Origin: Nanobdellota archaeon
GTDB taxonomy: Archaea > Nanobdellota > Nanobdellia > Pacearchaeales > GW2011-AR1
DNA length: 52,734 bases
NCBI GenBank assembly: GCA_038045185.1
Contig: JBBSYO010000020.1
Span: 1 to 52,734, forward strand
Direction: 5' to 3'
Positions 1,014-44,872 of this stretch are shown here, piece by piece; the stretch's first letter is position 1; every line of letters starts with the position of its first letter. Made by a program: the position numbers and the translations under genes. The notes under the pieces were generated by a model that was not told the origin of the DNA, did no database searches, and worked only from the letters and a program-made list of their open reading frames with translations.

Positions 1014-1205
1014 CTATTTTTCAGGAGAATCTTTCTTGTCAATTAATTTAAACACATTTGAAAAACACTCCCCGCAATAACGCTTTTGGGGATGAACCGG
1101 CCCATAGTCTTCTTGATAATAAGAATCTCCAGGAATTATGTGAATGTCAAGTTCGTCTAGTATCTTACCACAATTTTCGCATTTAAACTTTGGGGATTTA
1201 TACAT
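1014..1205 (-). CDS. small zinc-ribbon protein
   Basis: 63 aa with CENCG...CGEC (two CxxC pairs). TATA-like ctatttataa about 25-30 nt upstream of the ATG. Confidence 0.4.
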   Translation of the reverse strand: MYKSPKFKCENCGKILDELDIHIIPGDSYYQEDYGPVHPQKRYCGECFSNVFKLIDKKDSPEK

Positions 1206-3642: not shown

Positions 3643-4287
3643 TCAAGGTTTATAGTTTTGTAGATATTCTATCTTAGGTAAAAAAGGATATTTTTTTAGC
3701 AAGGTAGAATCATTATGAACCTCTTTCAATAGATCATCTGTCCAGTGTTTTTTATCTGCAGTGATGATCGTTAATCTGTTATTATTATGTTCCTGAACTG
3801 CAGAAGCAAGAGTTTGGGCGTCAGAGTCATTAGGACTAAGCCAAGTAAACAAACAGCTTTTAAGATTAAAATCTATTTGACTAACCGGAATTACCACTGT
3901 ATCAATATAATTTTTAATAAAATAGTTTATTCTAGCTTGCAATAGATTAAAGATATTATTAACATCTTCTATAAATTTCTTTTTATCTTGGCTACTTTCA
4001 TACCCAAAAATTAACCTCGTAACAATTAACTTATCCTGCGGGAAAAGTATTTTAGACTGTTCACTAGAAAACAAATCGTAATTACTATCTTGAATTTTTT
4101 GGTTAAATTCAAAGAGTATTGCTTTTTGTCTTTTCAGCCATTTTGGAAGATTTACACTTACTATGTAGTCGCATAACAGAAAAGAATCTTTTTTGTTATC
4201 TACGAATAATTTTGCTCTTTCTTCTAAAGGATGTCCAAACGGCATACAAAAATAAATCGGAAGATTCATATCTAAAAAATATTTCAT
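3643..4287 (-). CDS. PIN-like domain protein (divergent, with insertion)
   Basis: N-terminal YFLDMN acidic strand. C-terminal NDSDAQTLASA...LTIITADKKHW matches the PIN C-terminal half pattern (D..A.A ... T.D..F/W). Overlaps the upstream wHTH gene by 1 nt. Confidence 0.4.
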   Translation of the reverse strand: MKYFLDMNLPIYFCMPFGHPLEERAKLFVDNKKDSFLLCDYIVSVNLPKWLKRQKAILFEFNQKIQDSNYDLFSSEQSKILFPQDKLIVTRLIFGYESSQDKKKFIEDVNNIFNLLQARINYFIKNYIDTVVIPVSQIDFNLKSCLFTWLSPNDSDAQTLASAVQEHNNNRLTIITADKKHWTDDLLKEVHNDSTLLKKYPFLPKIEYLQNYKP

Positions 4288-5348
4288 TACTCATTCTCCA
4301 ATCCTTCAAGAATTACCTTTTGGATATTCTCTGAAGAGTTATCTTTCGAAATCTTTATTTCGAATGGATTTGTTTCTTGCGCAACAGATTCTAATTCTTC
4401 GATATAGGACTTATAATTCATTTCCTTAAAATTGAGATTCAATTCTCTTATTTGTTGAAACAATTGTTTATTATCTTTATCAATAAATTCTTCCGAATCT
4501 TTAAATGAAGTAAAGGTTGTAAGAGTATCCCAAAGCTGATTCAATGTACCCTTAATTATCTCTAAATTCTGAATTTCATTTTTTTTGTTTAATAGAGCTA
4601 TTTGAGAATTGCTAATGAAATTTTCAAAATCGAAATAAAACTTTTCTAATTTTAATGGATAGTTCAATGATAAATCTAACAATGCTCTTTGAATGTCTGC
4701 GTTTATATCTTTATTTGTGTCCTTATTTATTTTGTGCAGTAAGAATAATCTTGCTAAATTTTCCTTAGCCGAATAAAACTTCATGTCATATTTTTGATAT
4801 TGATATTCTCTCTCTTGGTAAGCAATACCTGTATGTTTTTTATCTTTCAATATTTCTTTAATACACTTAATAATATCTAATTTTTCTTTAGGTTCTTCAA
4901 TCATACTCAAGATGTTTTGATTACTTGAATCAAAACTGGCACAGGTAGTCATGCCATAATGAAAGTTTAAAATAGGAAGATTAAGTTTGCAAGATTTTAT
5001 CACGTCTACGGCTATTTTTTGCAGAGCCGTTTTTGATAAGTCTGTCCCCTTTTCTTTTTTCCATTCTTTTTCAATTTCACTTAAAATATAAAGAGTTTTT
5101 GTCCTTATTTCTTTACTAAATGGAATACTATAATATACGGGATCATCAGTCCTTCTATAAACTTTCATTTTATCGGTACTTAAAATTTCATTCACCGCAC
5201 CGTCTTCTTTTAGTTTTTCTAAATAACTATTTGTTGTTGGCCAGTTAGAACCAACTTTATTTGCGATCTCGTTAATTCCCTTAGGTCCTTCAAATAGGAA
5301 ATCCAAAATTTCTTTTTTTATCTGGCTGGATGTTTTTCTAATTGTCAC
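4287..5348 (-). CDS. winged-helix (MarR/ArsR-like N-terminus) protein, 353 aa, otherwise unknown
   Basis: N-terminal ILDFLFEGPKGINEIANKVGSNWPTTNSYLEKLKEDGAV resembles a wHTH. Coupled to the downstream PIN-like ORF. Confidence 0.45.
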   Translation of the reverse strand: MTIRKTSSQIKKEILDFLFEGPKGINEIANKVGSNWPTTNSYLEKLKEDGAVNEILSTDKMKVYRRTDDPVYYSIPFSKEIRTKTLYILSEIEKEWKKEKGTDLSKTALQKIAVDVIKSCKLNLPILNFHYGMTTCASFDSSNQNILSMIEEPKEKLDIIKCIKEILKDKKHTGIAYQEREYQYQKYDMKFYSAKENLARLFLLHKINKDTNKDINADIQRALLDLSLNYPLKLEKFYFDFENFISNSQIALLNKKNEIQNLEIIKGTLNQLWDTLTTFTSFKDSEEFIDKDNKQLFQQIRELNLNFKEMNYKSYIEELESVAQETNPFEIKISKDNSSENIQKVILEGLENE

Positions 5349-32962: not shown

Positions 32963-33055
32963 ATCAAAAAGTTCTTGAGTTCATTGTGTGAACTTTTGGA
33001 TGCTCAGGAATGCTGCGCCCTAAAGGGCGTGGTTTGAACCACATTCCTGACATCA
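32963..33055 (+). repeat. structured element E3 (short form)
   Basis: ATCAAAAAGTTCTTGAGT... Hairpin AAAAGTTC/GAACTTTT, then TCAGGAATG...CATTCCTGA. Collinear with 52522-52680. Confidence 0.75.
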
Positions 33056-34865
33056 TCAGCCCAGAAACAAGAAAAGCAATCCACCATATCAAAGCACCGC
33101 GATCTTTCTCTTCTTCGCGGCAATCGTGGCAATCAGGTCCTCCACAATCCGCCCCAGCCTCATTAATATCCTTGACCATGTTATAGCAATGAAGAGGATA
33201 ACGCTTGGCAGACTGCATCAGCAAAACGCGCAACGTCGGGATATTCTCATTCAAAATAACCTGCGCGACTGGTGCAGACAATTGCGCATTGACGAGAGAG
33301 ACGCCCTTTTCTCCAGGAGCAAGCGGATTATCCGAAGTGCCGTCATAAGGAGTCACACTCACCACTGCAGACGAACTCTCTATACGTATCACACTAACTG
33401 AAATATCATAAGCCCTATCGCCGTCCAAATCAAACACTCTCGTCTCCCCAGCAATCATGTCAGATTCTTGCGGACTGCTCGCAACACGCACACGCACGCT
33501 ATTCTTAGACACGCGAAGCACACTAACAGCATGCTCCTCTCCCTGCACACGAACAAGAATCTCTGCGTTCTCCTTCAATTCACGCGTCACGCTGCCATAA
33601 AGAGATAAATCCTGTTCCAGATAATCGTATGTCGCGCGTGTGCGTGTATCTCTCCGTGCAGAAATGCGCGCAGAATCATCGCTTGGAGGGGTCTCCTGAA
33701 CAAGAGTCTCATCAGGCGTAATATCAGAATCGTCATCATTAAAAGCAACCACATCAAGCGGTGGACTTGGCATTACACATATTTTTGTATCCGTGAATGT
33801 ACGCTCGCAAACTTCGTCATAACATGTACGCGACTGCACGACTTGAGGTATTTCGTCCTCAAGCGCCACTAGTCCATCAAAAGAAAGACTTGTACAAGAA
33901 CTATATGGTCCGCACACTATCTTTACTCCACACTCAAGTTCACTATCAGCAGAAGGCAGTCCGTCTGCGTCTTCAAGAACTGTCCCATCAGGACCTAACG
34001 GCTCTTTATCAGGACCTGTCTCGGTCACAGACTCAACAGCAATATATCTCTCGGATGTAGCAAAAGATTCAGTCAGATAAATAAAAGAAATATACAAATC
34101 CGCCCATTTACGCGGAGTAGTGAAAGAGAACTTGCTCAAGTCTATAGCCACTGAATTATCCTTATCAGAAAATCCTTTAACTTTTTCAGTATAGAGAGAG
34201 CTAATACGTACAGTTACGCCAGACTGCGTTAAAGAAACAAAAGATTTATCAGTCTTCTCGCCCCGAAGCAAAACAGATTCTATACGTCCAAACTTTTCCG
34301 CAGGCAGTGTGGCTTCAATATCTTTCCCAGCACGAACGCGAAACACACGCTCGCCCGTGATAACTTCTGAAATGACTGCTGAATCAATACTGGGAGCAGG
34401 AGCGTTAGGAGGAGGGTCATCCGGTAGAGTTATACCACCCGCAGGAGCCACACCTGAAACAGTTGCGCTGATCCTAGAAGATCCGCCAGAAGAAACAGGA
34501 GGAGTATCTGACAGCGCAAGAGTAACTTCAAGATAAGGAGAAAATTCAACTTCTTCCAGCGTTTCAGCAATAGAAGGTTCAAGCAGCACATCACGCAGAG
34601 GCATTCTTTTGGTAAGCGTGTTGACACTTAAAACAACATCGCTGTCAATAGGCAGTACTCCAGCTTCGTTAGGACGATAAAGGAAAGTGCCCTTGATAGT
34701 ATCTCCTGCAGTAATCTTATCAATAACAAAATCTCCTGCCGCGCGACCAGTCAATGTAAATTCAAAAAAGGCCAGGCTCGTCACCAAAATCAAAACAGCA
34801 AGCGCGAGAGAAACAACCAGCAACGTGCGTGAAAAATCAGAGCTGGGTGAGAGCATACGGACCAT
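32964..34865 (-). CDS. large surface protein with N-terminal signal anchor, Cys-rich region and C-terminal TM
   Basis: 633 aa. N-terminal LLVVSLALAVLILVTSLAFF and C-terminal ALIWWIAFLVSGLMMSGMWF. The last ~30 codons read through element E3. Confidence 0.6.
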   Translation of the reverse strand: MVRMLSPSSDFSRTLLVVSLALAVLILVTSLAFFEFTLTGRAAGDFVIDKITAGDTIKGTFLYRPNEAGVLPIDSDVVLSVNTLTKRMPLRDVLLEPSIAETLEEVEFSPYLEVTLALSDTPPVSSGGSSRISATVSGVAPAGGITLPDDPPPNAPAPSIDSAVISEVITGERVFRVRAGKDIEATLPAEKFGRIESVLLRGEKTDKSFVSLTQSGVTVRISSLYTEKVKGFSDKDNSVAIDLSKFSFTTPRKWADLYISFIYLTESFATSERYIAVESVTETGPDKEPLGPDGTVLEDADGLPSADSELECGVKIVCGPYSSCTSLSFDGLVALEDEIPQVVQSRTCYDEVCERTFTDTKICVMPSPPLDVVAFNDDDSDITPDETLVQETPPSDDSARISARRDTRTRATYDYLEQDLSLYGSVTRELKENAEILVRVQGEEHAVSVLRVSKNSVRVRVASSPQESDMIAGETRVFDLDGDRAYDISVSVIRIESSSAVVSVTPYDGTSDNPLAPGEKGVSLVNAQLSAPVAQVILNENIPTLRVLLMQSAKRYPLHCYNMVKDINEAGADCGGPDCHDCREEEKDRGALIWWIAFLVSGLMMSGMWFKPRPLGRSIPEHPKVHTMNSRTF

Positions 34866-35364: not shown

Positions 35365-36036
35365 ATGAGCTTGGGCGGCAGTGTCATCATACCAGAGCAA
35401 AAAAATGACAATTTTTTGCTGAAACTGCGCGCCACACTGAAGAAATATTATCGCACGCACAAGTTCGTGCTCGTCTGCGGAGGCGGTTCAATTGCCCGCG
35501 CGTACATAACCCTTCTTGAAAAAGAGCACAAAAACCATCGCGAGCAATCAGAGGCAGGCATTCGCGCAACGCGCATGAATGCAGAGCTTATCATGCAAGT
35601 ATTCGGAAAAGAGGCGAATTCAGCACTCCCGAAAAACATGAAATCAGTCAGGTCAGAGCTTCACAAAAATAACGTTGTCGTCTCTGGAGCACTCCGCTAT
35701 GCCCCGCATCAGACTTCAGACACCACTGCCGCTAAACTAGCAGCCTATCTGAAATCAGAATTCGTCAACCTAACCAACGTTCCTGGTCTATACACCAGCG
35801 ACCCGCGCAAAAACAAAGCAGCAAAACTAATCCCACACATCTCATGGAAAGAATTTGAAGCAAAGGCGCATGCAATAAGATTCAGTCCAGGAGAACATTT
35901 TGTCCTTGACCAGAAAGCTTCGACACTCATCAGGAAACACAAGATAAAAACATTCATTATGGGGAAAGATGCAAACAACCTCAAAAAATTCCTTAATAAT
36001 GAAAAGTGGCTCGGAACGCAAATCGACTCCCAATGA
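35365..36036 (+). CDS. pyrH: archaeal-type UMP kinase
   Basis: MSLGGSVI..., VLVCGGGSIARAYI, GIRATRMNAELI. The ORF-track extension back to 35113 only reads through element E2. Confidence 0.8.
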   Translation: MSLGGSVIIPEQKNDNFLLKLRATLKKYYRTHKFVLVCGGGSIARAYITLLEKEHKNHREQSEAGIRATRMNAELIMQVFGKEANSALPKNMKSVRSELHKNNVVVSGALRYAPHQTSDTTAAKLAAYLKSEFVNLTNVPGLYTSDPRKNKAAKLIPHISWKEFEAKAHAIRFSPGEHFVLDQKASTLIRKHKIKTFIMGKDANNLKKFLNNEKWLGTQIDSQ

Positions 36037-36404
36037 AAACCATTGTAGCATCAAACTCAGAAAAGGCGCGCAAGATTATTGAATCAAAAAGCTGCGACGT
36101 TCTCGTCTTAGATTTAGCAGGTCACGACAATGTAAAGAAGCTCTTCACAATAATCACTCCAGTAATCGCACGTATAGCGCAAACCAATAACATCGCGATA
36201 GGAATCAATGCACAGGCGCTCAAAAAGTTATCTTCGGTTGAAAAAGCAAGCACGCTCGCAAGATTAAGAGAAGTCATAAAATACTGCAGGAAAGCGCGCA
36301 CCAAACTAGCCGTCAACCTGTCTAAGCACGAAGCACGCGCCCTGCTTATTTCTCTCGGGGCATCAACCGAACAACTCACGAAAACGATAACACAACCTTT
36401 TTAA
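36033..36404 (+). CDS. short Rpp30 (RNase P protein component 3)-like protein, tentative
   Basis: ATGA overlap with the pyrH stop. IAIGINAQALKK...REVIKYCRKARTKLAVNLSKHEARALLISLGAS resembles the C-terminal half of Rpp30. Only 123 aa. Confidence 0.3.
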   Translation: MKTIVASNSEKARKIIESKSCDVLVLDLAGHDNVKKLFTIITPVIARIAQTNNIAIGINAQALKKLSSVEKASTLARLREVIKYCRKARTKLAVNLSKHEARALLISLGASTEQLTKTITQPF

Positions 36405-39559: not shown

Positions 39560-39560
39560 A

Positions 39561-39690
39561 GAAAATCGTTGAAATTTCCTACCGAACCGGAGCAAGCTCC
39601 GCGGTATTCGGAAATTTCTACTCCACGATTTTCTAATTAGAATTTTTACTCCACAGCAAGCTGTGGGGTATTCAACCCAAAAATTCTAAT
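39561..39690 (-). repeat. 130-bp double-hairpin element, copy 2 (inverted relative to copy 1)
   Basis: Starts 2 nt after the pheT stop and ends overlapping the ATG at 39689. 126/130 identity to copy 1 after reverse-complementing. Confidence 0.9.
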
Positions 39691-40897
39691 GAAAATGAAT
39701 AGCGACTTACAACTCATGCGTAAAAAACATAAAATAACAATTATCGTCGCCTCCATTATTCTTCTGCTGGGCTTGACCTTCTTCGGCGGCTTCTATGTCT
39801 CATCTAAAAAGCAGGAAGCGAGCATACAGCATCCAGAGCAAAATGCAGGCATAATAACAGAAGAACCGATAATTGAGTCTCAAATAATAAACTTGAGTAT
39901 TGCACAGTTGACTCTTGATTCTGAGGATATAGAAGGTGGCTACATTCTAAAGAGGCACTCTTCTGGACTTATAAAAGAAGATAACAACGAATACTTTATT
40001 AAAAAATTTGATAAAGAGACTCTAGAGGTTAAAGAATTTAGAACTCTCTACATAGAGACGTATAAGTTTAGCACAATAGAAGAAGCCGACAAAGAGTTTG
40101 CTAAACTGGATGAAAATATCAGGAACCCTAATTTGAGATTTGAACCGATTGAATTAGAGCAGATTGGTGATGCCAGCAGATATTACAAAACAGATTATCT
40201 TTATAATTTCTATTCATTTGAAGGTTATCTGGGATTAGTAAAATTAAACAATATCATATTTAAAATAGGTATTTCTGGCATTTCAAACTCGATTAACAAA
40301 GAAGAATTAACATATTACTCAAAGAAGCTTATAGAGAAAACCGAGAAAGATTCGGCAGACAATTTTGAGATCTCAGCAACACAGAAGGCGCCCCCCAAAG
40401 AGAATCTGAAAATATCCTTACAGATTCGTAATCAAAGCTCTGGTACAAGCAACAGATGGAAAGAACAAGATAAAATAATTTTAGCTTGGGACTATAACTT
40501 TATCGATAACGAATTCAAGATAAGACAGAACACAGATGATAGCGGTAATACACTCTGGGTTCACTATTTTTATATGTCCCAGAATAAAGAGTTCTTGATA
40601 TTAGACACATGTCTAAACAATTCTCAAAACGAGAGCATTTCTCTCGTCTCCAAATACTTGCTGTTGCGAGATAGTCTAGGAAATATCTATACCGCCTTTG
40701 CAAGAGAAGATGAAATAAACATTCTCAGAAATAACAGAAAGGTCTGCGTGAAATATATCTTTCCTGTATTAAAAAAAGATAGATTTCCGAAGATTAAAGA
40801 GTTTAATCTTGAAATAAAAGACGAGAGAGGAACTACCTTGGGAAAAATCGGTGTCGCGGCTAGCGATTTGAGTAGATACAGACAAGAGAACAACTAG
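39689..40897 (+). CDS. membrane-anchored hypothetical protein (402 aa), AT-rich
   Basis: N-terminal TM ITIIVASIILLLGLTFFGGFYV; no motif recognised. Confidence 0.5.
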   Translation: MKMNSDLQLMRKKHKITIIVASIILLLGLTFFGGFYVSSKKQEASIQHPEQNAGIITEEPIIESQIINLSIAQLTLDSEDIEGGYILKRHSSGLIKEDNNEYFIKKFDKETLEVKEFRTLYIETYKFSTIEEADKEFAKLDENIRNPNLRFEPIELEQIGDASRYYKTDYLYNFYSFEGYLGLVKLNNIIFKIGISGISNSINKEELTYYSKKLIEKTEKDSADNFEISATQKAPPKENLKISLQIRNQSSGTSNRWKEQDKIILAWDYNFIDNEFKIRQNTDDSGNTLWVHYFYMSQNKEFLILDTCLNNSQNESISLVSKYLLLRDSLGNIYTAFAREDEINILRNNRKVCVKYIFPVLKKDRFPKIKEFNLEIKDERGTTLGKIGVAASDLSRYRQENN

Positions 40898-40941
40898 AGC
40901 CTGACAATCGTATAAGTATTAACTAGACCTGTGATTCTATA

Positions 40942-41013
40942 AGCCTCAGGGGGGAATTGAACCCCCGACTTCAACATTACCAATGTTGCGTTCTACCGCT
41001 GAACTACTGAGGC
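40942..41013 (-). tRNA. tRNA-Thr (GGT)
   Basis: GCCTCAG-TA-GTTC-AGCGGTA-GAAC-G-CAACA-TTGGTAA-TGTTG-AAGTC-GGGGG-TTCAATT-CCCCC-CTGAGGC-T. Confidence 0.9.
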
Positions 41014-42006
41014 AAGTCTGTCAAGATGTCGCTCGTTAGAAAAACCTATAAGATCCATCCAACGCTTCACCTGATTAATACCGTAAATCTCTATTATATA
41101 AATTTGTCTTTTTTCATTAAAAGTATTATATAGGCTAAAATGTCGAGATAAATAAGAAACTAATTGATTATACAAATCTTTACTCACAGTCTGTAAAGCT
41201 ATTCTAGGATAATATAATTTGTAACTTTTTCTTTTATCTATAAAAACACAACCATCAGTATCAAATATGCCTCGGATAGTTGCTCTAACGAGTTCATCCT
41301 TAGATTGCATAATTCTATCGGGAATGGCAATAGTATGAGCTTTCTTGCCTGGAACGAATCCAAAACCATGTTTAAAAAAATTAAAAAGGTCTTTAGAATA
41401 AAAAACAATCCTCACACCATTAACCTTTCCATAAGAAGAATAAATATGAGGTTTTAAATCGGGAACAACAGATTTGAAAGTGGGAATTATTAATTCATTA
41501 TAATATTGCACATCATATCTTCTATCGCCTGCAAATTCTATATGATACAATTTATTATTATAAAGGTTAAAACATCCATCCCCGATAAAAGCACCTACAC
41601 ATTGACATATTGAATGAGATAATTGTAAAGAAGCTAAAGAATCTTTAAAGGAAGAATCTTCTATTTTATGATACCTCTTAATATTTTTTAATCCCGTTTT
41701 CCTGCCCTCATCAAATTTCTTAAAGTTAATAAGATAAGCCTTTTTTCCCCCCATAACTTGCCCAAAATTATCAGGTAGTTTTTCAATGTTAGAAGAAACT
41801 TTTATTTTATCAGCTTCAGATAAAAATTCAATCAATCTTACAAATAAACTTTCAGGTATAAAGCAAGATCCATTTCTATAATGTTCCAAGGTGGATTTTG
41901 GTATTCCAAATTTGCCTCTTAGACCTTTCCAAGAGAGATTAAAAGATATCTTAACAGAATCAAATAAGTAATTTCTAGTTAAATTGTCCCTAATTTCTAT
42001 TCTCAT
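40993..42006 (-). CDS. double-motif LAGLIDADG homing-endonuclease-like protein
   Basis: Motifs CVGAFIGDGCF and IRGIFDTDGCV. Start taken at MRIEIRDN (TATA aaatatataaa about 27 nt upstream). The last 7 codons and stop lie inside tRNA-Thr. Confidence 0.8.
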   Translation of the reverse strand: MRIEIRDNLTRNYLFDSVKISFNLSWKGLRGKFGIPKSTLEHYRNGSCFIPESLFVRLIEFLSEADKIKVSSNIEKLPDNFGQVMGGKKAYLINFKKFDEGRKTGLKNIKRYHKIEDSSFKDSLASLQLSHSICQCVGAFIGDGCFNLYNNKLYHIEFAGDRRYDVQYYNELIIPTFKSVVPDLKPHIYSSYGKVNGVRIVFYSKDLFNFFKHGFGFVPGKKAHTIAIPDRIMQSKDELVRATIRGIFDTDGCVFIDKRKSYKLYYPRIALQTVSKDLYNQLVSYLSRHFSLYNTFNEKRQIYIIEIYGINQVKRWMDLIGFSNERHLDRLASVVQR

Positions 42007-42038
42007 ATTTGATAACACGACTCGGGTTTATATATTTT

Positions 42039-42060
42039 GTGCTTCCTGAGCTACAGAGGC
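42039..42060 (-). pseudogene. displaced tRNA 5' fragment (acceptor 5' strand plus D-arm start) resembling tRNA-Thr
   Basis: GCCTCTGTAGCTCAGGAAGCAC versus tRNA-Thr GCCTCAGTAGTTCAGCGGTAGAAC. Its own TATA (tttttatagg) lies about 25-30 nt upstream. Confidence 0.65.
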
Positions 42061-42092
42061 ACACACACCTACCATAAAGTTCCTATAAAAAT

Positions 42093-42329
42093 CTATCTCA
42101 ACACATCAGAAGTTTTGTTAATTCCGAAATCTTGACCGGGTAGCCACTCCGCCCGCACTGCATATCCAGTAACATAAACTGCTTTGTCATAAAAACCAGA
42201 AAGCCAGCCAAAGTACAAATCAAAGAACTTATCGCGCTCCGCAGAATCATGCAAAGCCAAATTATTATTACTTATAATCAACAATGCTGAAAGCACCAGA
42301 ATCTTAACAAGAATGATAAAGGACTTCAT
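42093..42329 (-). CDS. small secreted/membrane protein (78 aa)
   Basis: N-terminal hydrophobic signal-like segment. 4-nt overlap with the upstream ORF. Confidence 0.4.
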   Translation of the reverse strand: MKSFIILVKILVLSALLIISNNNLALHDSAERDKFFDLYFGWLSGFYDKAVYVTGYAVRAEWLPGQDFGINKTSDVLR

Positions 42330-42634
42330 TTGACTGTAGTTACGTTATTTAAGCCCCAATCGAGGTTCACGACATTCCCGGTTATCTGCGCGAAATTACC
42401 AAAGAAAGCCCCCAACCAAGTCGCATACACCCTGCCAAAAGAAACAAACCCGTCAAATGACGCGAAATTCGGATCACTTACTGCTCCAACATAAATCACA
42501 GTAAACACAAAAAAGAGTGCGGCGCCGACAAGAATGTACGACCAGATATTCTGTCCAATGTTAGTTGCTTTTACAAAGACAACCAACGCAGCCATCACCA
42601 TAATAACCAATATCCAGCCCACAGCCATACACAT
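42326..42634 (-). CDS. membrane protein (102 aa, about 3 TM)
   Basis: Hydrophobic segments. Confidence 0.45.
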   Translation of the reverse strand: MCMAVGWILVIMVMAALVVFVKATNIGQNIWSYILVGAALFFVFTVIYVGAVSDPNFASFDGFVSFGRVYATWLGAFFGNFAQITGNVVNLDWGLNNVTTVK

Positions 42635-42702
42635 TTAGGAACAAGTTTGTATAAATATCTTTCGAGCAAGATTTTTAAGCCCTGAAAACACCCTATAACC
42701 CT

Positions 42703-42775
42703 AGCCCCGTCGTATAGTGGTCAAGTATTCGGGCCTCTGGCGCCCGAGACCCAGGTTCGAATCCTGGCGGGGCTA
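42703..42775 (+). tRNA. tRNA-Pro (TGG)
   Basis: AGCCCCG...CGGGC-CTCTGGC-GCCCG...CCAGG-TTCGAAT-CCTGG-CGGGGCT-A. TATA gatttttaag about 28 nt upstream. Confidence 0.9.
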
Positions 42776-42838
42776 TAACCAATTGAGCGAAGCGAAATGG
42801 TTTAGAACCGACAGCACTAAGAACCACAGTTCTTTCAG

Positions 42839-42850
42839 CTGGCGGGGCTA
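42839..42850 (+). repeat. 12-nt duplicate of the tRNA-Pro 3' end
   Basis: ctggcggggcta is identical to 42764-42775, separated from it by a 63-nt hairpin-containing spacer. Confidence 0.7.
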
Positions 42851-42909
42851 TCCATTTTCCAAAAGGCTTAACACAACTCTTTTAAACCGTCTTCCGCTCT
42901 CCCCTTCAT

Positions 42910-42934
42910 GCCCTTGTAGTCTAGTGGTCAAGGA
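42910..42934 (+). pseudogene. displaced tRNA 5' fragment (acceptor 5' strand plus D-arm) resembling tRNA-Glu
   Basis: GCCCTTGTAGTCTAGTGGTCAAGGA versus tRNA-Glu GCTCTTATCGTCTAGATGGTCAAGGA. TATA-like ctcttttaaacc about 27 nt upstream. Confidence 0.65.
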
Positions 42935-42966
42935 AACTATTTATAGTAGCGACGCATTTAGAATAA

Positions 42967-43863
42967 GTGAGAATTCGCTTAGAAAAAGGAAAACAGCGAG
43001 AGTTAATTGAACAGGCTAAAATGAATTTAACCTGGAATCAATTAGGCAAAAGAGTGAATCTAAATTCTCATTATCTTCAAAATGAATTAAGAAATGAACA
43101 AAAACTCATTTCAGAAGAGCTATTTAATCATTTATTATCATTGACAAAGAAAGATTATTCATGCTTTATCGCGGAAAAGCTCGCAGATAACTGGGGAAGA
43201 TCAAAGGGCGGGAAAAATTCTAAGGGCAATACTAAAGTTATTTCTCCTTCGAAGAAGAATATTTATTTAGCCGAATTAATCGGAATCATACTGGGAGACG
43301 GACATGTTGAGAAACGCGTAAATGACACAACCAGGTGTTATACTCTTAAAATTGCAGGTCATATAAAAAATGACTGCGCGTATTTATCTTATTACGTGAG
43401 CAACCTCATTAAGCAGATATATGGAGAATTTCCTTCTATCCGTAAAGATGCCAATTATGGTGTAATGTGGGCTGTCCTGCACGGCAGAGGTGTAGTGGAA
43501 GATCTAACAAATAAGGGCTTGGGAACAGGCAACAAGAAAAAGAATAATCAAGGAATTCCCGATTGGATTAAAGAAAACAAATCCTTTCTTAAAGTTTGCC
43601 TTCGTGGTCTTATTGACACAGACGGATCAATCCATCGGATTTCAAAGAAAAATAAAAATCTCAGAATTTGTTTTACCAGTTACATTCCTCAATTACTAAG
43701 TGATGCCAGAGAAGCATTTATTTGCGCAGAATATTTTCCTTCAAAAATAATTAAAGATAATCAGTTCTTCATTACGCGTAAAGAAAACATTGCTCGTTAT
43801 GTGAAAGAAATAGGATTTGCCAACGAAAAACATTTAAAAAGACTTGAAAGATTAGGTAGCTAA
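42967..43863 (+). CDS. double-motif LAGLIDADG homing-endonuclease-like protein
   Basis: Motifs LAELIGIILGDGHV and LRGLIDTDGSI. GTG start about 25 nt after TATA ctatttatag. The stop abuts the first base of tRNA-Glu. Paralogous to 40993-42006. Confidence 0.8.
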   Translation: MRIRLEKGKQRELIEQAKMNLTWNQLGKRVNLNSHYLQNELRNEQKLISEELFNHLLSLTKKDYSCFIAEKLADNWGRSKGGKNSKGNTKVISPSKKNIYLAELIGIILGDGHVEKRVNDTTRCYTLKIAGHIKNDCAYLSYYVSNLIKQIYGEFPSIRKDANYGVMWAVLHGRGVVEDLTNKGLGTGNKKKNNQGIPDWIKENKSFLKVCLRGLIDTDGSIHRISKKNKNLRICFTSYIPQLLSDAREAFICAEYFPSKIIKDNQFFITRKENIARYVKEIGFANEKHLKRLERLGS

Positions 43864-44033
43864 GCTCTTATCGTCTAGATGGTCAAGGACGACGCCCTCT
43901 CGAACGCCGAGTGTTACATCGTCGAGATTATACACTCAGTCCCTCTGCGGACAGGCATTCCTATTATCGGGCTTGCATTCTTGCAAGCCCTTGGAGAACG
44001 GCGTAAACCCGGGTTCGAATCCCGGTGGGAGCA
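43864..44033 (+). tRNA. tRNA-Glu (CTC) with an intron of about 95 nt in the anticodon loop
   Basis: GCTCTTA-TC-GTCT...GGAC-G-ACGCC-CTCTCG / intron / GGCGT-AAAC-CCGGG-TTCGAAT-CCCGG-TGGGAGC-A. The intron contains the 9-bp hairpin GGGCTTGCA/TGCAAGCCC. Confidence 0.8.
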
Positions 44034-44143
44034 TCAGGCTGTTGAATGAGATGAAACAGCAAGCCACTGACGGTATGAGAACTTCAGTTCGAATGAACCG
44101 GCAGGGGCGTGATGTTAGTATGACATAATCATCGGATATTGAA

Positions 44144-44872
44144 TTATTTTTTAGCTATTTTCCAAAGGAGCTCAAAATGTTTCCTGTAGCTTTCAGCAAC
44201 AGCCTTATCCTTTATTAAGAAAGCGTAAGGATTTTCTGTAAATACAGCAATGGCCACGCAATCTCCAACTATGACGGTTTCCTGGAATTGAGCAAATTCC
44301 TTATCCACGTATCTTACTGAAGTGAGTTTATTCTTTTCTATCTCGGCGCCCCCTATATTTTTTACAGAAGCGTCAAACACCTGACGTGAAGGCAATTTAT
44401 TTTCAATCCTCCGTTTATGTAGATTTAACCACCAGGTAAGACCCATTATCTCGGCTGTTATCGGACCGCCGCCAAACGTATTGTATTCTCCTTTTGCATT
44501 AATCATAATCTCGTAAACCTCTTTTATCCCCCTAATTCCCTTGTAGACGCTCGCCATCTCTTCCTTAACTGCATTATTTTGTCTTGCTCGTAACTCGGGC
44601 AGGATTTCTTCAAACTTCTTCTTTTTATCTTCAATATAGGTAAAGAATTGTTCTGGATCAGTAGCTTGGTATACCTTTCTCTTGCCCTCTAATATAAAAT
44701 TGATAAGACTCTTCTCTATAAGTGAATTCAAATCACGGTGAACGGTAGAGTTGGGCAAACTCGATTTTTCTAAAATCGCTCCTGCAGTTGAAGAACCCAA
44801 TCCCAAGAGAGTCAAATATACTTTTATTTCTGTATGCGTCAATCCCAAATCTTCTAGTATCCTAGTATCCAT
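44144..44872 (-). CDS. TrmB-family transcriptional regulator
   Basis: N-terminal LEDLGLTHTEIKVYLTLLGLGSSTAGAILEKSSLPNSTVHRDLNSLIEKSLI (TrmB wHTH). Confidence 0.8.
   Translation of the reverse strand: MDTRILEDLGLTHTEIKVYLTLLGLGSSTAGAILEKSSLPNSTVHRDLNSLIEKSLINFILEGKRKVYQATDPEQFFTYIEDKKKKFEEILPELRARQNNAVKEEMASVYKGIRGIKEVYEIMINAKGEYNTFGGGPITAEIMGLTWWLNLHKRRIENKLPSRQVFDASVKNIGGAEIEKNKLTSVRYVDKEFAQFQETVIVGDCVAIAVFTENPYAFLIKDKAVAESYRKHFELLWKIAKK

Follow-up and report, generated by a model that had tools for sequence, protein, structure and literature searches.

Contig JBBSYO010000020.1 of a DPANN archaeon, analyzed here over a stretch of 52,734 nucleotides (nt) that is called the window throughout, carries on its minus strand, at positions 40942-42092, a cassette of about 1.1 kb in which an open reading frame (ORF) for a LAGLIDADG protein is lodged in a gene for threonine transfer RNA (tRNA), tRNA-Thr(GGT). 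We believe, with a probability of roughly three in four, that this is an intron-less homing cassette composed of a promoter, an endonuclease gene and a complete variant tRNA-Thr gene, the latter providing a built-in rescue of the essential gene that is hit. The window had been annotated before from its sequence alone, and the core proposition of this first-pass annotation, that an endonuclease gene sits in a tRNA gene whose function is kept without splicing, holds and is more general than one locus. Read along the minus strand, the Thr cassette region consists of a TATA box (TATA1), a 15-nt stub of a tRNA 5' end, a second TATA box (TATA2), a 337-amino-acid (aa) ORF with two LAGLIDADG motifs (ORF1) and a complete tRNA-Thr(GGT) gene; all the elements that had been listed are present on this strand.

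Interruption of a resident tRNA-Thr gene

Sites that lack the cassette were found through homologues of a neighboring 102-aa gene, of which there are three, with 78-79% aa identity. At L080/L081 and L082 (L followed by a number labels a related genome locus), an uninterrupted tRNA-Thr(GGT) gene (GCCTCTGTAGCTCAGCGGTTAGAGC...CAGAGGCT) begins about 25 nt past the same two small genes and the same TATA box, and no endonuclease gene is present; L083 is a third such empty site. In the window, TATA1 (tttttatagg, 42082..42091, minus strand) comes just after the stop codon of a 78-aa gene (42095-93) and ends about 24 nt before the 5' stub (GCCTCTGTAGCTCAG, 42046..42060, minus strand), which is also the spacing of other tRNA promoters in the window; the same box precedes the uninterrupted tRNA-Thr gene at equal spacing in L080, L082 and L083. 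The stub itself shows no difference from the first 15 nt of the tRNA at the empty sites L080 and L082. When the window is compared with the empty-site loci by BLAST, homology runs from 42776 down to 42046, i.e., to nt 15 of the stub, and then breaks, returns as an 83% match over the tRNA gene, and resumes in the gene for phenylalanyl-tRNA synthetase (PheRS). Since in relatives an intact tRNA gene, with the stub as its first 15 nt, comes after the same promoter, the arrangement in the window must have arisen by insertion. Taken together, the empty sites and the BLAST breakpoints identify the fragments, here and in a second cassette described below, as the 5' ends of resident genes and TATA1 as the promoter that originally belonged to the resident tRNA-Thr(GGT) gene. 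The comparison of orthologous tRNA-Thr loci, which had been suggested as a check, thus confirms that a free-standing LAGLIDADG gene was inserted in tRNA-Thr(GGT) and excludes that the displaced fragment is a separate decayed tRNA unrelated to the insertion. The fragment is real, but the length of 22 nt assigned to it earlier has to be reduced to 15 nt, as the homology to the empty-site relatives stops at 42046.

The left end of the cassette (42027..42041, minus strand), which is separated from the 5' stub by gaag and is conserved in related loci, consists of CACAAA followed by TATA2 (aaaatatataaa, 42038-27) about 20 nt ahead of the ATG of ORF1. This element is likely a promoter of the transcription factor B recognition element (BRE)/TATA type for a leaderless endonuclease messenger RNA (mRNA).

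The same locus could be viewed as the footprint of an integrase-type element or as a decayed tandem tRNA, in which case the repeat would be an attachment (att) site or a defunct copy that has nothing to do with the endonuclease. This is suggested by the role of tRNA genes as classic integration sites and by the neighboring tRNA-Gln gene, which carries repeats of its 3' end, as it also does in L001 and L054. We regard such an origin as highly improbable: the LAGLIDADG gene is the sole ORF between the repeats, the repeats are imperfect (13/15) and the whole tRNA is unlike the empty-site allele, the empty sites contain a single tRNA-Thr, not two, and the layout is specific to the ORF1 protein family (65 of 79 loci). 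As to the tRNA-Gln gene, its last 13 nt (CTGGCGGGGCTAT, 42764-42776) are repeated about 75 nt downstream (42839-42851), with three such repeats in L001 and two in L054; they look like integration/excision footprints, separate from the endonuclease cassettes. A split tRNA gene of the Nanoarchaeum type was also considered for the Thr locus and rejected: the stub is just 15 nt long, a promoter follows it directly, there is no partner with nt 16-35, and an intact tRNA lies beside it.

The surroundings of the tRNA gene are variable. The interval between tRNA-Thr and the PheRS beta gene (39560-40941) differs in every close relative: the window has a gene for a 402-aa secreted-looking protein there, L080 one for a Laminin_G_3 protein of 823 aa, and L082 an ORF of 69 aa. 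It is thus a variable hotspot adjoining the tRNA. Stray tRNA 3' fragments are found 20-270 nt downstream of the endonuclease-free tRNA-Thr at L082 ~2640-2668 and L083 ~1085-1105 (minus strand; GAGTTCAATTCCCACTAGAGGCT and GAACCCCACTAGGGGCT, respectively). The one in L082 resembles the T arm of the alleles linked to endonuclease genes, and these fragments may be debris of an earlier event.

A complete replacement tRNA

ORF1 (40993..42006, minus strand; ATG at 42006, stop codon TAG at 40995-40993; 341 aa if begun at an upstream GTG) has no stop codon of its own and terminates at a TAG within the D loop of the downstream tRNA. Its end reads GCC TCA GTA GTT CAG CGG TAG across tRNA nt 1-21, and so the overlap had been correctly recognized but miscounted: there are six sense codons and a stop, not seven and a stop. 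The linked tRNA-Thr(GGT) itself (40942..41013, minus strand) is called complete by ARAGORN and scores 72.7 bits with the Rfam tRNA model. The 5' stub matches it at 13 of 15 positions, and the previously noted resemblance to the tRNA-Thr 5' end is above chance: the 16-mer pattern of the stub, allowing up to three mismatches, has three matches against 0.2 expected, two of which are the stub and the tRNA 5' end.

The linked tRNA and the tRNA that occupies the empty sites are different alleles, with an identity of 60/73, compared to 67/75 between the former and the linked allele of L001. Pair 6:67 is T-A in the empty-site allele and A-T in the linked tRNA of the window, pair 11:24 is C-G and T-A, respectively, the D loop is GGTTA and GGTA, and the T stem is CCGTG/CACGG and GGGGG/CCCCC; the variable loop differs as well, and the anticodon arm is identical. 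The two positions at which the stub mismatches the linked tRNA are 6 and 11, both occupied in the stub by the base of the empty-site allele, and T6 of the stub is unable to pair with T67 of the linked tRNA. The first-pass annotation had assumed that the cassette carries just tRNA positions 1 to about 22 and thereby restored the old tRNA, which is contradicted by differences that extend along the whole length of the linked gene.

Homologues of ORF1 were located at 79 loci, and at 19 of them, which we call layout A, a same-strand tRNA-Thr(GGT) overlaps the 3' end of the ORF as in the window; the stub-TATA-ORF-tRNA layout of the Thr cassette recurs in 18 other genomes. In part of these cases, remnants of the resident tRNA survive on both sides: 8 of the 19 layout-A loci have, 14-40 nt behind the linked tRNA, a 3' stub of canonical tRNA-Thr, which in L003 and L016 starts at tRNA nt 36, exactly 14 nt past the linked tRNA. 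The 5' and 3' stubs of a locus pair with each other at 7/7 positions (GCCTCTA/TAGAGGC in both L003 and L004, GCCACAG/CTGTGGC in L054, GCTCAGA/TCTGGGC in L016); the stubs of these four loci and those of the second cassette of the window pair worse with the linked tRNA. The paired stub sequences differ between lineages and, since they covary, insertions must have occurred repeatedly, each into the lineage's own functional tRNA. The presence of two stubs and the difference of alleles over their whole length mean that the cassette comprises the promoter, the endonuclease gene and a complete replacement tRNA, and the 5'-replacement layout of the first-pass annotation should be read as replacement of a whole tRNA that leaves stubs.

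At the Thr locus of the window, no significant 3' stub was detected by local alignment in the 110 nt past the tRNA (p 0.76), and nothing stub-like was found in the spacer before the PheRS gene. By its sequence, this cassette appears to have lost its 3' stub, and with the remainder of the resident gene gone, the only intact tRNA at the site is that of the cassette. That the 5' stub alone is visible here, and that the anticodon arm is the same in linked and empty-site alleles, would also agree with a cassette limited to tRNA positions 1 to ~22, the old 3' two-thirds of the gene having stayed in place and been completed by the new 5' end. We consider this improbable, because three features outside nt 1-22, namely the T stem, pair 6:67 and base 24 of the D stem, differ from relatives whose neighbor proteins are ~79% identical, both stub mismatches are empty-site bases, and a separate resident 3' stub is present behind the complete linked tRNA in related loci and in the second cassette of the window.

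The stub could in principle be the first exon of an interrupted gene, spliced to the downstream tRNA body after removal of an endonuclease-bearing intron of either archaeal bulge-helix-bulge or group I type. The closest structures to ORF1 are indeed archaeal intron-encoded enzymes, and ARAGORN, when introns are allowed, calls a tRNA with an 831-nt intron at L067. However, the downstream tRNA is complete alone, and nt 1-7 of the stub pair with the 3' acceptor strand of the linked tRNA at 95 of 133 positions, as compared to 132 of 133 for the true 5' end (19 loci). A search of 40700-44200 for group I/II introns gave no Rfam match at the gathering threshold or at E up to 1, and the L067 call joins a stub wrongly to a complete downstream tRNA. 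Splicing is therefore not needed, in agreement with the earlier suggestion that the tRNA stays intact without it, and the intron explanation is, in our judgment, the least credible of all those considered. The L067 call (3826-4749) is for a tRNA-Gly(TCC) with a short-form LAGLIDADG ORF in the 831-nt intron, and was rejected as an artifact, the sequence being a 15-nt stub, a promoter, an ORF and a complete intron-bearing tRNA that begins at ~4634.

The layout-A loci share a common plan: TATA1 is followed after ~23 nt by the 15-nt stub, then after 3-6 nt by CACAA(A) and TATA2, and after a further ~20 nt by the ATG; CACAA and a TATA box are found ~20 nt ahead of the ATG in 18 of the 19 loci. Mean pairwise identity of the stubs is 0.67 (0.76 for nt 8-15) versus 0.33 for the spacer before them, and the stub has a better match with the empty-site tRNA (11.9/15) than with the tRNA linked at its own locus (9.9/15). 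The D-stem strand is GCTC in the stub at 14 of 19 loci; in the linked tRNA, it is GCTC at 6 of 19, GCTT at ten, and GTTC, GCGC and GCTA at one each. These figures fit stubs that are fairly young pieces of "sensitive" alleles and linked alleles whose D arms have probably been shifted by compensatory change. Located beside a promoter, a stub could function as a homology arm or as an operator. At one locus, L012, an antisense tRNA 3' fragment (AGCCTCAGCTGAGAATTGAACTCAGAACC, ~3880-3915) lies upstream of the 5' stub, which suggests nested or successive events at one site.

A family of tRNA-linked endonucleases and a second cassette

Contrary to the second refuting scenario set out in the first-pass annotation, the homologues of ORF1 are predominantly tRNA-linked: a tRNA abuts the ORF at 65 of the 79 loci, and it is tRNA-Thr in 54 of the 65. 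ORF1 has 151 homologues, found in Pace-, Woese-, Nano-, Iain- and Micrarchaeota. Among the best 120 of them, the translated 5' sequence of a tRNA forms the end of 58 (...ASVAQW or similar), and 26 more have tails that are antisense T arm. Besides layout A, two other arrangements were distinguished. In layout B (L019-L040 and L051-L078; Iainarchaeota and Micrarchaeota), the ORF is convergent with tRNA-Thr(GGT/TGT), which abuts its 3' end; predicted genes continue across the antisense T arm and acquire tails like AGIEPATS, and in approximately 7 of 22 loci, the ORF is preceded by an antisense fragment of a tRNA 3' end, which mirrors the window layout. In layout C, a complete tRNA-Thr(CGT) lies just upstream, and a tRNA 3' fragment, significant in 13 of 17 loci, is located just past the ORF. 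A sub-layout was observed in L031, L034, L041, L043, L045 and L059 (around 3850-5000), where a complete tRNA-Thr(CGT) comes first and is followed by a decayed stub-like GTACAGAAACACAAA and a TATA box, the ORF, and the 3' half of a Thr tRNA; the acceptor of this 3' half matches GGT-type alleles, and the stop codon of the ORF lies in the would-be anticodon loop.

A paralogous stub-TATA-ORF-tRNA layout is present in the window itself at 42910-44108 on the plus strand. Here, the original promoter ctcttttaaa is followed by a 5' stub of resident tRNA-Glu (nt 1-25, GCCCTTGTAGTCTAGTGGTCAAGGA, 42910..42934, plus strand); the same promoter precedes an uninterrupted tRNA-Glu(CTC) in L003 and L001, i.e., at empty Glu sites, and BLAST homology of the window to L003 stops at 42934. 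The cassette's own TATA box (ctatttatag, 42937-46) lies ahead of ORF2 (42967..43863, plus strand), a 298-aa LAGLIDADG gene with a GTG start, which matches Pfam LAGLIDADG_3 with 37.2 bits and along its full length shares 26% identity with ORF1 (E 5e-13). At the base right after the TAA of ORF2 begins a complete linked tRNA-Glu(CTC) (43864..44033, plus strand), whose anticodon loop contains an intron of 96 nt; the 5' end of this tRNA gene, GCTCTTATCGTCTAGATGG, is unlike both the 5' stub and the empty-site alleles (..TTGTAGTCTAGTGG). A 3' stub of the resident tRNA-Glu follows (GTTCGAATGAACCGGCAGGGGC, 44087..44108, plus strand; local alignment to the 3' part of L003 tRNA-Glu, shuffle p ~0.02), and its acceptor strand pairs 7/7 with GCCCTTG of the 5' stub, the linked tRNA-Glu's own strand being TGGGAGC. 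We infer that this cassette works in the same way as the Thr cassette. Homologues of ORF2 number 694, and the translated tRNA-Glu 5' end (...APVV or ...MPL) forms the C-terminus of 77 of the best 120. At each of the four homologue loci that were retrieved, the ORF abuts tRNA-Glu(CTC) and is preceded by a 5' fragment that is decayed to a varying degree. In a local tblastn search of the 79 ORF1 loci, the only trace of an ORF2-type gene was a C-terminal remnant in L008.

Several observations concern the tRNA genes of this type. The linked tRNA-Glu(CTC) was missed by default ARAGORN and by the Rfam tRNA model and was called by ARAGORN with introns allowed. Similar tRNA-Glu introns of 96-118 nt occur in endonuclease-free alleles (L001, L003) as well as in endonuclease-linked ones (L083, L085, L086). 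At L008 (6411-6572), the last ~54 codons of an ORF2-type gene lie directly upstream of tRNA-Glu(CTC), and this looks like a decayed cassette. Elsewhere in the window, at 33021-33163, relaxed ARAGORN calls a tRNA-Ala(TGC) with a 57-nt intron inside a 633-aa ORF (32964-34865), which is probably a false positive.

The protein encoded by ORF1 matches Pfam LAGLIDADG_3 (PF14528) with 37.7 bits against a cut-off of 22.5 and has two LAGLIDADG helices, IGAFIGDG with D143 and IRGIFDTDG with D251. Both aspartates are invariant in an alignment of 38 diverse homologues, so that the acidic residues needed for catalysis, whose loss would have spoken against the endonuclease, are kept, and the catalytic center is predicted to be intact. 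In its AlphaFold model (predicted local distance difference test (pLDDT) 91.2), ORF1 adopts what is predicted to be a pseudo-dimeric alpha-beta-beta-alpha-beta-beta-alpha fold of a monomeric double-motif enzyme; Foldseek matches the model to I-Tsp061I (E 4.7e-10) and I-DmoI, with target-normalized template modeling (TM) scores of 0.71-0.75, and a profile search of PDB sequences retrieves intein endonucleases, PI-PfuI, I-Tsp061I and I-DmoI. The N-terminal ~125 aa form an extra helical domain with weak helix-turn-helix (HTH) similarity (E 0.27). A search of IMG/VR for viral vectors returned only distant, partial relatives, with 25-34% identity.

The extra N-terminal domain with its HTH similarity, the intactness of the ORFs across very divergent DPANN lineages, and the conservation, above background, of the stub directly upstream of CACAAA/TATA2 raise the question of whether the protein has been domesticated. 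It would then be a vertically inherited LAGLIDADG-like protein, e.g., a regulator of a tRNA operon with the stub as its operator, and no homing would take place. Presence and absence, however, vary between close relatives at both sites: the window has both the Thr and the Glu cassettes, L083 lacks the Thr cassette and has the Glu one, L001 and L003 have the former and lack the latter, and L080/L082 lack the Thr cassette. The covariation of the stub pairs indicates repeated insertions, both catalytic aspartates are invariant, and a decayed copy precedes tRNA-Glu in L008. We therefore doubt domestication about as strongly as we doubt a cassette restricted to the tRNA 5' end. Autoregulation and homing are in any case compatible and not mutually exclusive.

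Proposed mechanism and relation to known systems

In the homing cassette that we propose, the endonuclease would cut intact tRNA-Thr(GGT) genes within the interval that is absent between the stubs (nt 16-35), and the break or gap would be repaired from a cassette-bearing copy, with the conserved tRNA ends (nt 1-15 and ~36-73) serving as homology. The linked tRNA would escape cutting because its D loop and D stem differ, base pairing being kept, and after the insertion the cell would depend on the tRNA of the cassette. TATA2 would drive a leaderless mRNA that reads on into the tRNA, and the latter would be released by an RNase P cut at tRNA +1. Read-through combined with RNase P 5' processing would be the simplest route, given that the position of TATA2 suits a leaderless mRNA and that the ORF leaves no room for a spacer before the tRNA; the earlier proposal of co-transcription with RNase P making the mRNA 3' end is thus plausible. 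As a cut at +1 would strip the ORF of its last six codons and the stop, one transcript molecule could serve as message or as tRNA precursor, but not as both after processing. The window has a weak match to RNase P p30 at 36006-36404, syntenic with a gene called p30 in L082. An internal tRNA promoter was considered and rejected: a TATA-like TTTTTCTA ends at -24 from tRNA +1, but it is made of the conserved GFSN codons, and since the same codons are found in homologues with a convergent tRNA, it is not evidence of a promoter.

A number of points weigh against this scheme. The site of cutting, the linked tRNA's immunity and co-transcription are all points that we infer from sequence. Over nt 25-46, there is hardly any difference between the linked tRNA and the empty-site allele, and if the target is centered on the anticodon loop, immunity is left unexplained. 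Fifteen nucleotides is a short homology arm, and with no detectable 3' stub at the Thr locus of the window, the right boundary of the cassette there is undefined. The higher conservation of the stub compared to the neighboring spacer (0.67 versus 0.33) could mean that the stub has a function of its own and is not young debris. The empty Thr sites come from two close lineages only, and because the nearest ORF1 homologue outside the window's own cluster is 60% identical, no recent donor is known.

Only tentatively, and with more doubt than conviction, do we extend the scheme to the idea that DPANN archaea harbor a large undescribed class of natural "cut-and-rescue" gene-replacement elements. In such elements, LAGLIDADG enzymes would destroy the resident tRNA gene and install a sequence-shifted copy. 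The conserved stubs would be portable homology arms for cross-species homing and, possibly, operators for autoregulation. Mirror-image layouts (sense on the 5' side, sense on the 3' side and antisense on the 3' side) would exist, several tRNA isotypes would serve as sites, the elements would drive the unusual D arms and introns of DPANN tRNAs, and they could provide a route to the fragmentation of tRNA genes.

To our knowledge, homing endonucleases survive in essential genes solely by means of self-splicing introns or inteins, or by residing beside their target. If our interpretation is correct, the cassettes represent a third solution for an essential RNA gene, which is to break the resident copy and to bring a complete altered replacement; they would be a natural counterpart of engineered cleave-and-rescue elements, tRNA genes themselves would be horizontally mobile cargo, and there would be a concrete selective force behind the odd D arms and intron-bearing tRNA alleles of DPANN archaea. 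In practical terms, the cassettes explain tRNA fragments that confuse tRNA finders and gene callers; hundreds of database proteins have C-terminal tails that are translated tRNA. The cassettes also provide a family of meganucleases that are presumably specific for tRNA genes, with targets that the stubs reveal. A literature search on tRNA-linked homing endonucleases of archaea, including DPANN, yielded no description of tRNA-linked LAGLIDADG cassettes in archaea, and a survey of archaeal group I introns describes LAGLIDADG genes in ribosomal RNA (rRNA) introns only (PMC6125680).

The parallel named in the first-pass annotation, SegB of phage T4, is a free-standing endonuclease encoded in a tRNA gene cluster and capable of intron-less homing (PMC2330249). 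As in our cassettes, its gene lies outside an intron or intein; as we propose for them, the target is a tRNA gene sequence, and homing carries flanking tRNA genes along and erases the recipient's markers (PMC2330249). SegB, however, is a GIY-YIG enzyme of a phage and is encoded between genes, whereas the cassette encodes a LAGLIDADG enzyme and resides in the genome of an archaeal cell, within the very tRNA gene that is its presumed target; stubs are left there, and the ORF overlaps the complete replacement tRNA to which it is fused. The cassette would thus work like Seg homing, but its protein is not a member of the Seg family. The closest enzymes by structure, I-DmoI and I-Tsp061I (PDB 2vs7 and 2dch), share with ORF1 the fold, the two catalytic motifs, the archaeal origin and stable-RNA genes as targets. 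They are encoded in bulge-helix-bulge introns of rRNA, where the host function is kept by RNA splicing; the cassette has no intron, keeps the function by a second gene copy, and its protein has the extra N-terminal domain of ~125 aa.

Elements that are moved by integrases enter tRNA genes, and a copy of the tRNA end that the element carries makes the gene whole again. Both there and in the cassette, the tRNA is kept intact by tRNA sequence that the element brings, and a displaced repeat is left behind. The cassette differs in having no integrase and no exact att repeats, in replacing the whole tRNA, and in encoding a LAGLIDADG nuclease as its sole protein. Partial duplication linked to an endonuclease has reportedly been seen in atp6 of Allomyces, in a manner similar to other mitochondrial cases. 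In mitochondrial atp6 and cob, free-standing LAGLIDADG or GIY-YIG ORFs are accompanied by a partial duplicate of the C-terminus of the host gene (PMC6279837). The invading unit likewise brings a replacement for the displaced part, and the original becomes a pseudogene fragment. In these protein-coding organelle genes, however, a terminal segment alone is replaced, whereas the cassette replaces a whole tRNA, has stubs on both sides, and obtains the final codons and the stop of its ORF from the tRNA.

Finally, the synthetic Cleave-and-Rescue (ClvR) elements combine a nuclease directed against an essential gene with a sequence-altered copy of that gene linked to it (PMC6442612). The cassette has in common with ClvR the linked, altered and presumably uncuttable copy, as well as the dependence of carriers on the element (PMC6442612). 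In contrast to ClvR, in which the combination was engineered, the cassette is natural and prokaryotic, the resistance of its tRNA copy is deduced from the allele differences, recognition is protein-based, and the element resides at the target locus itself.

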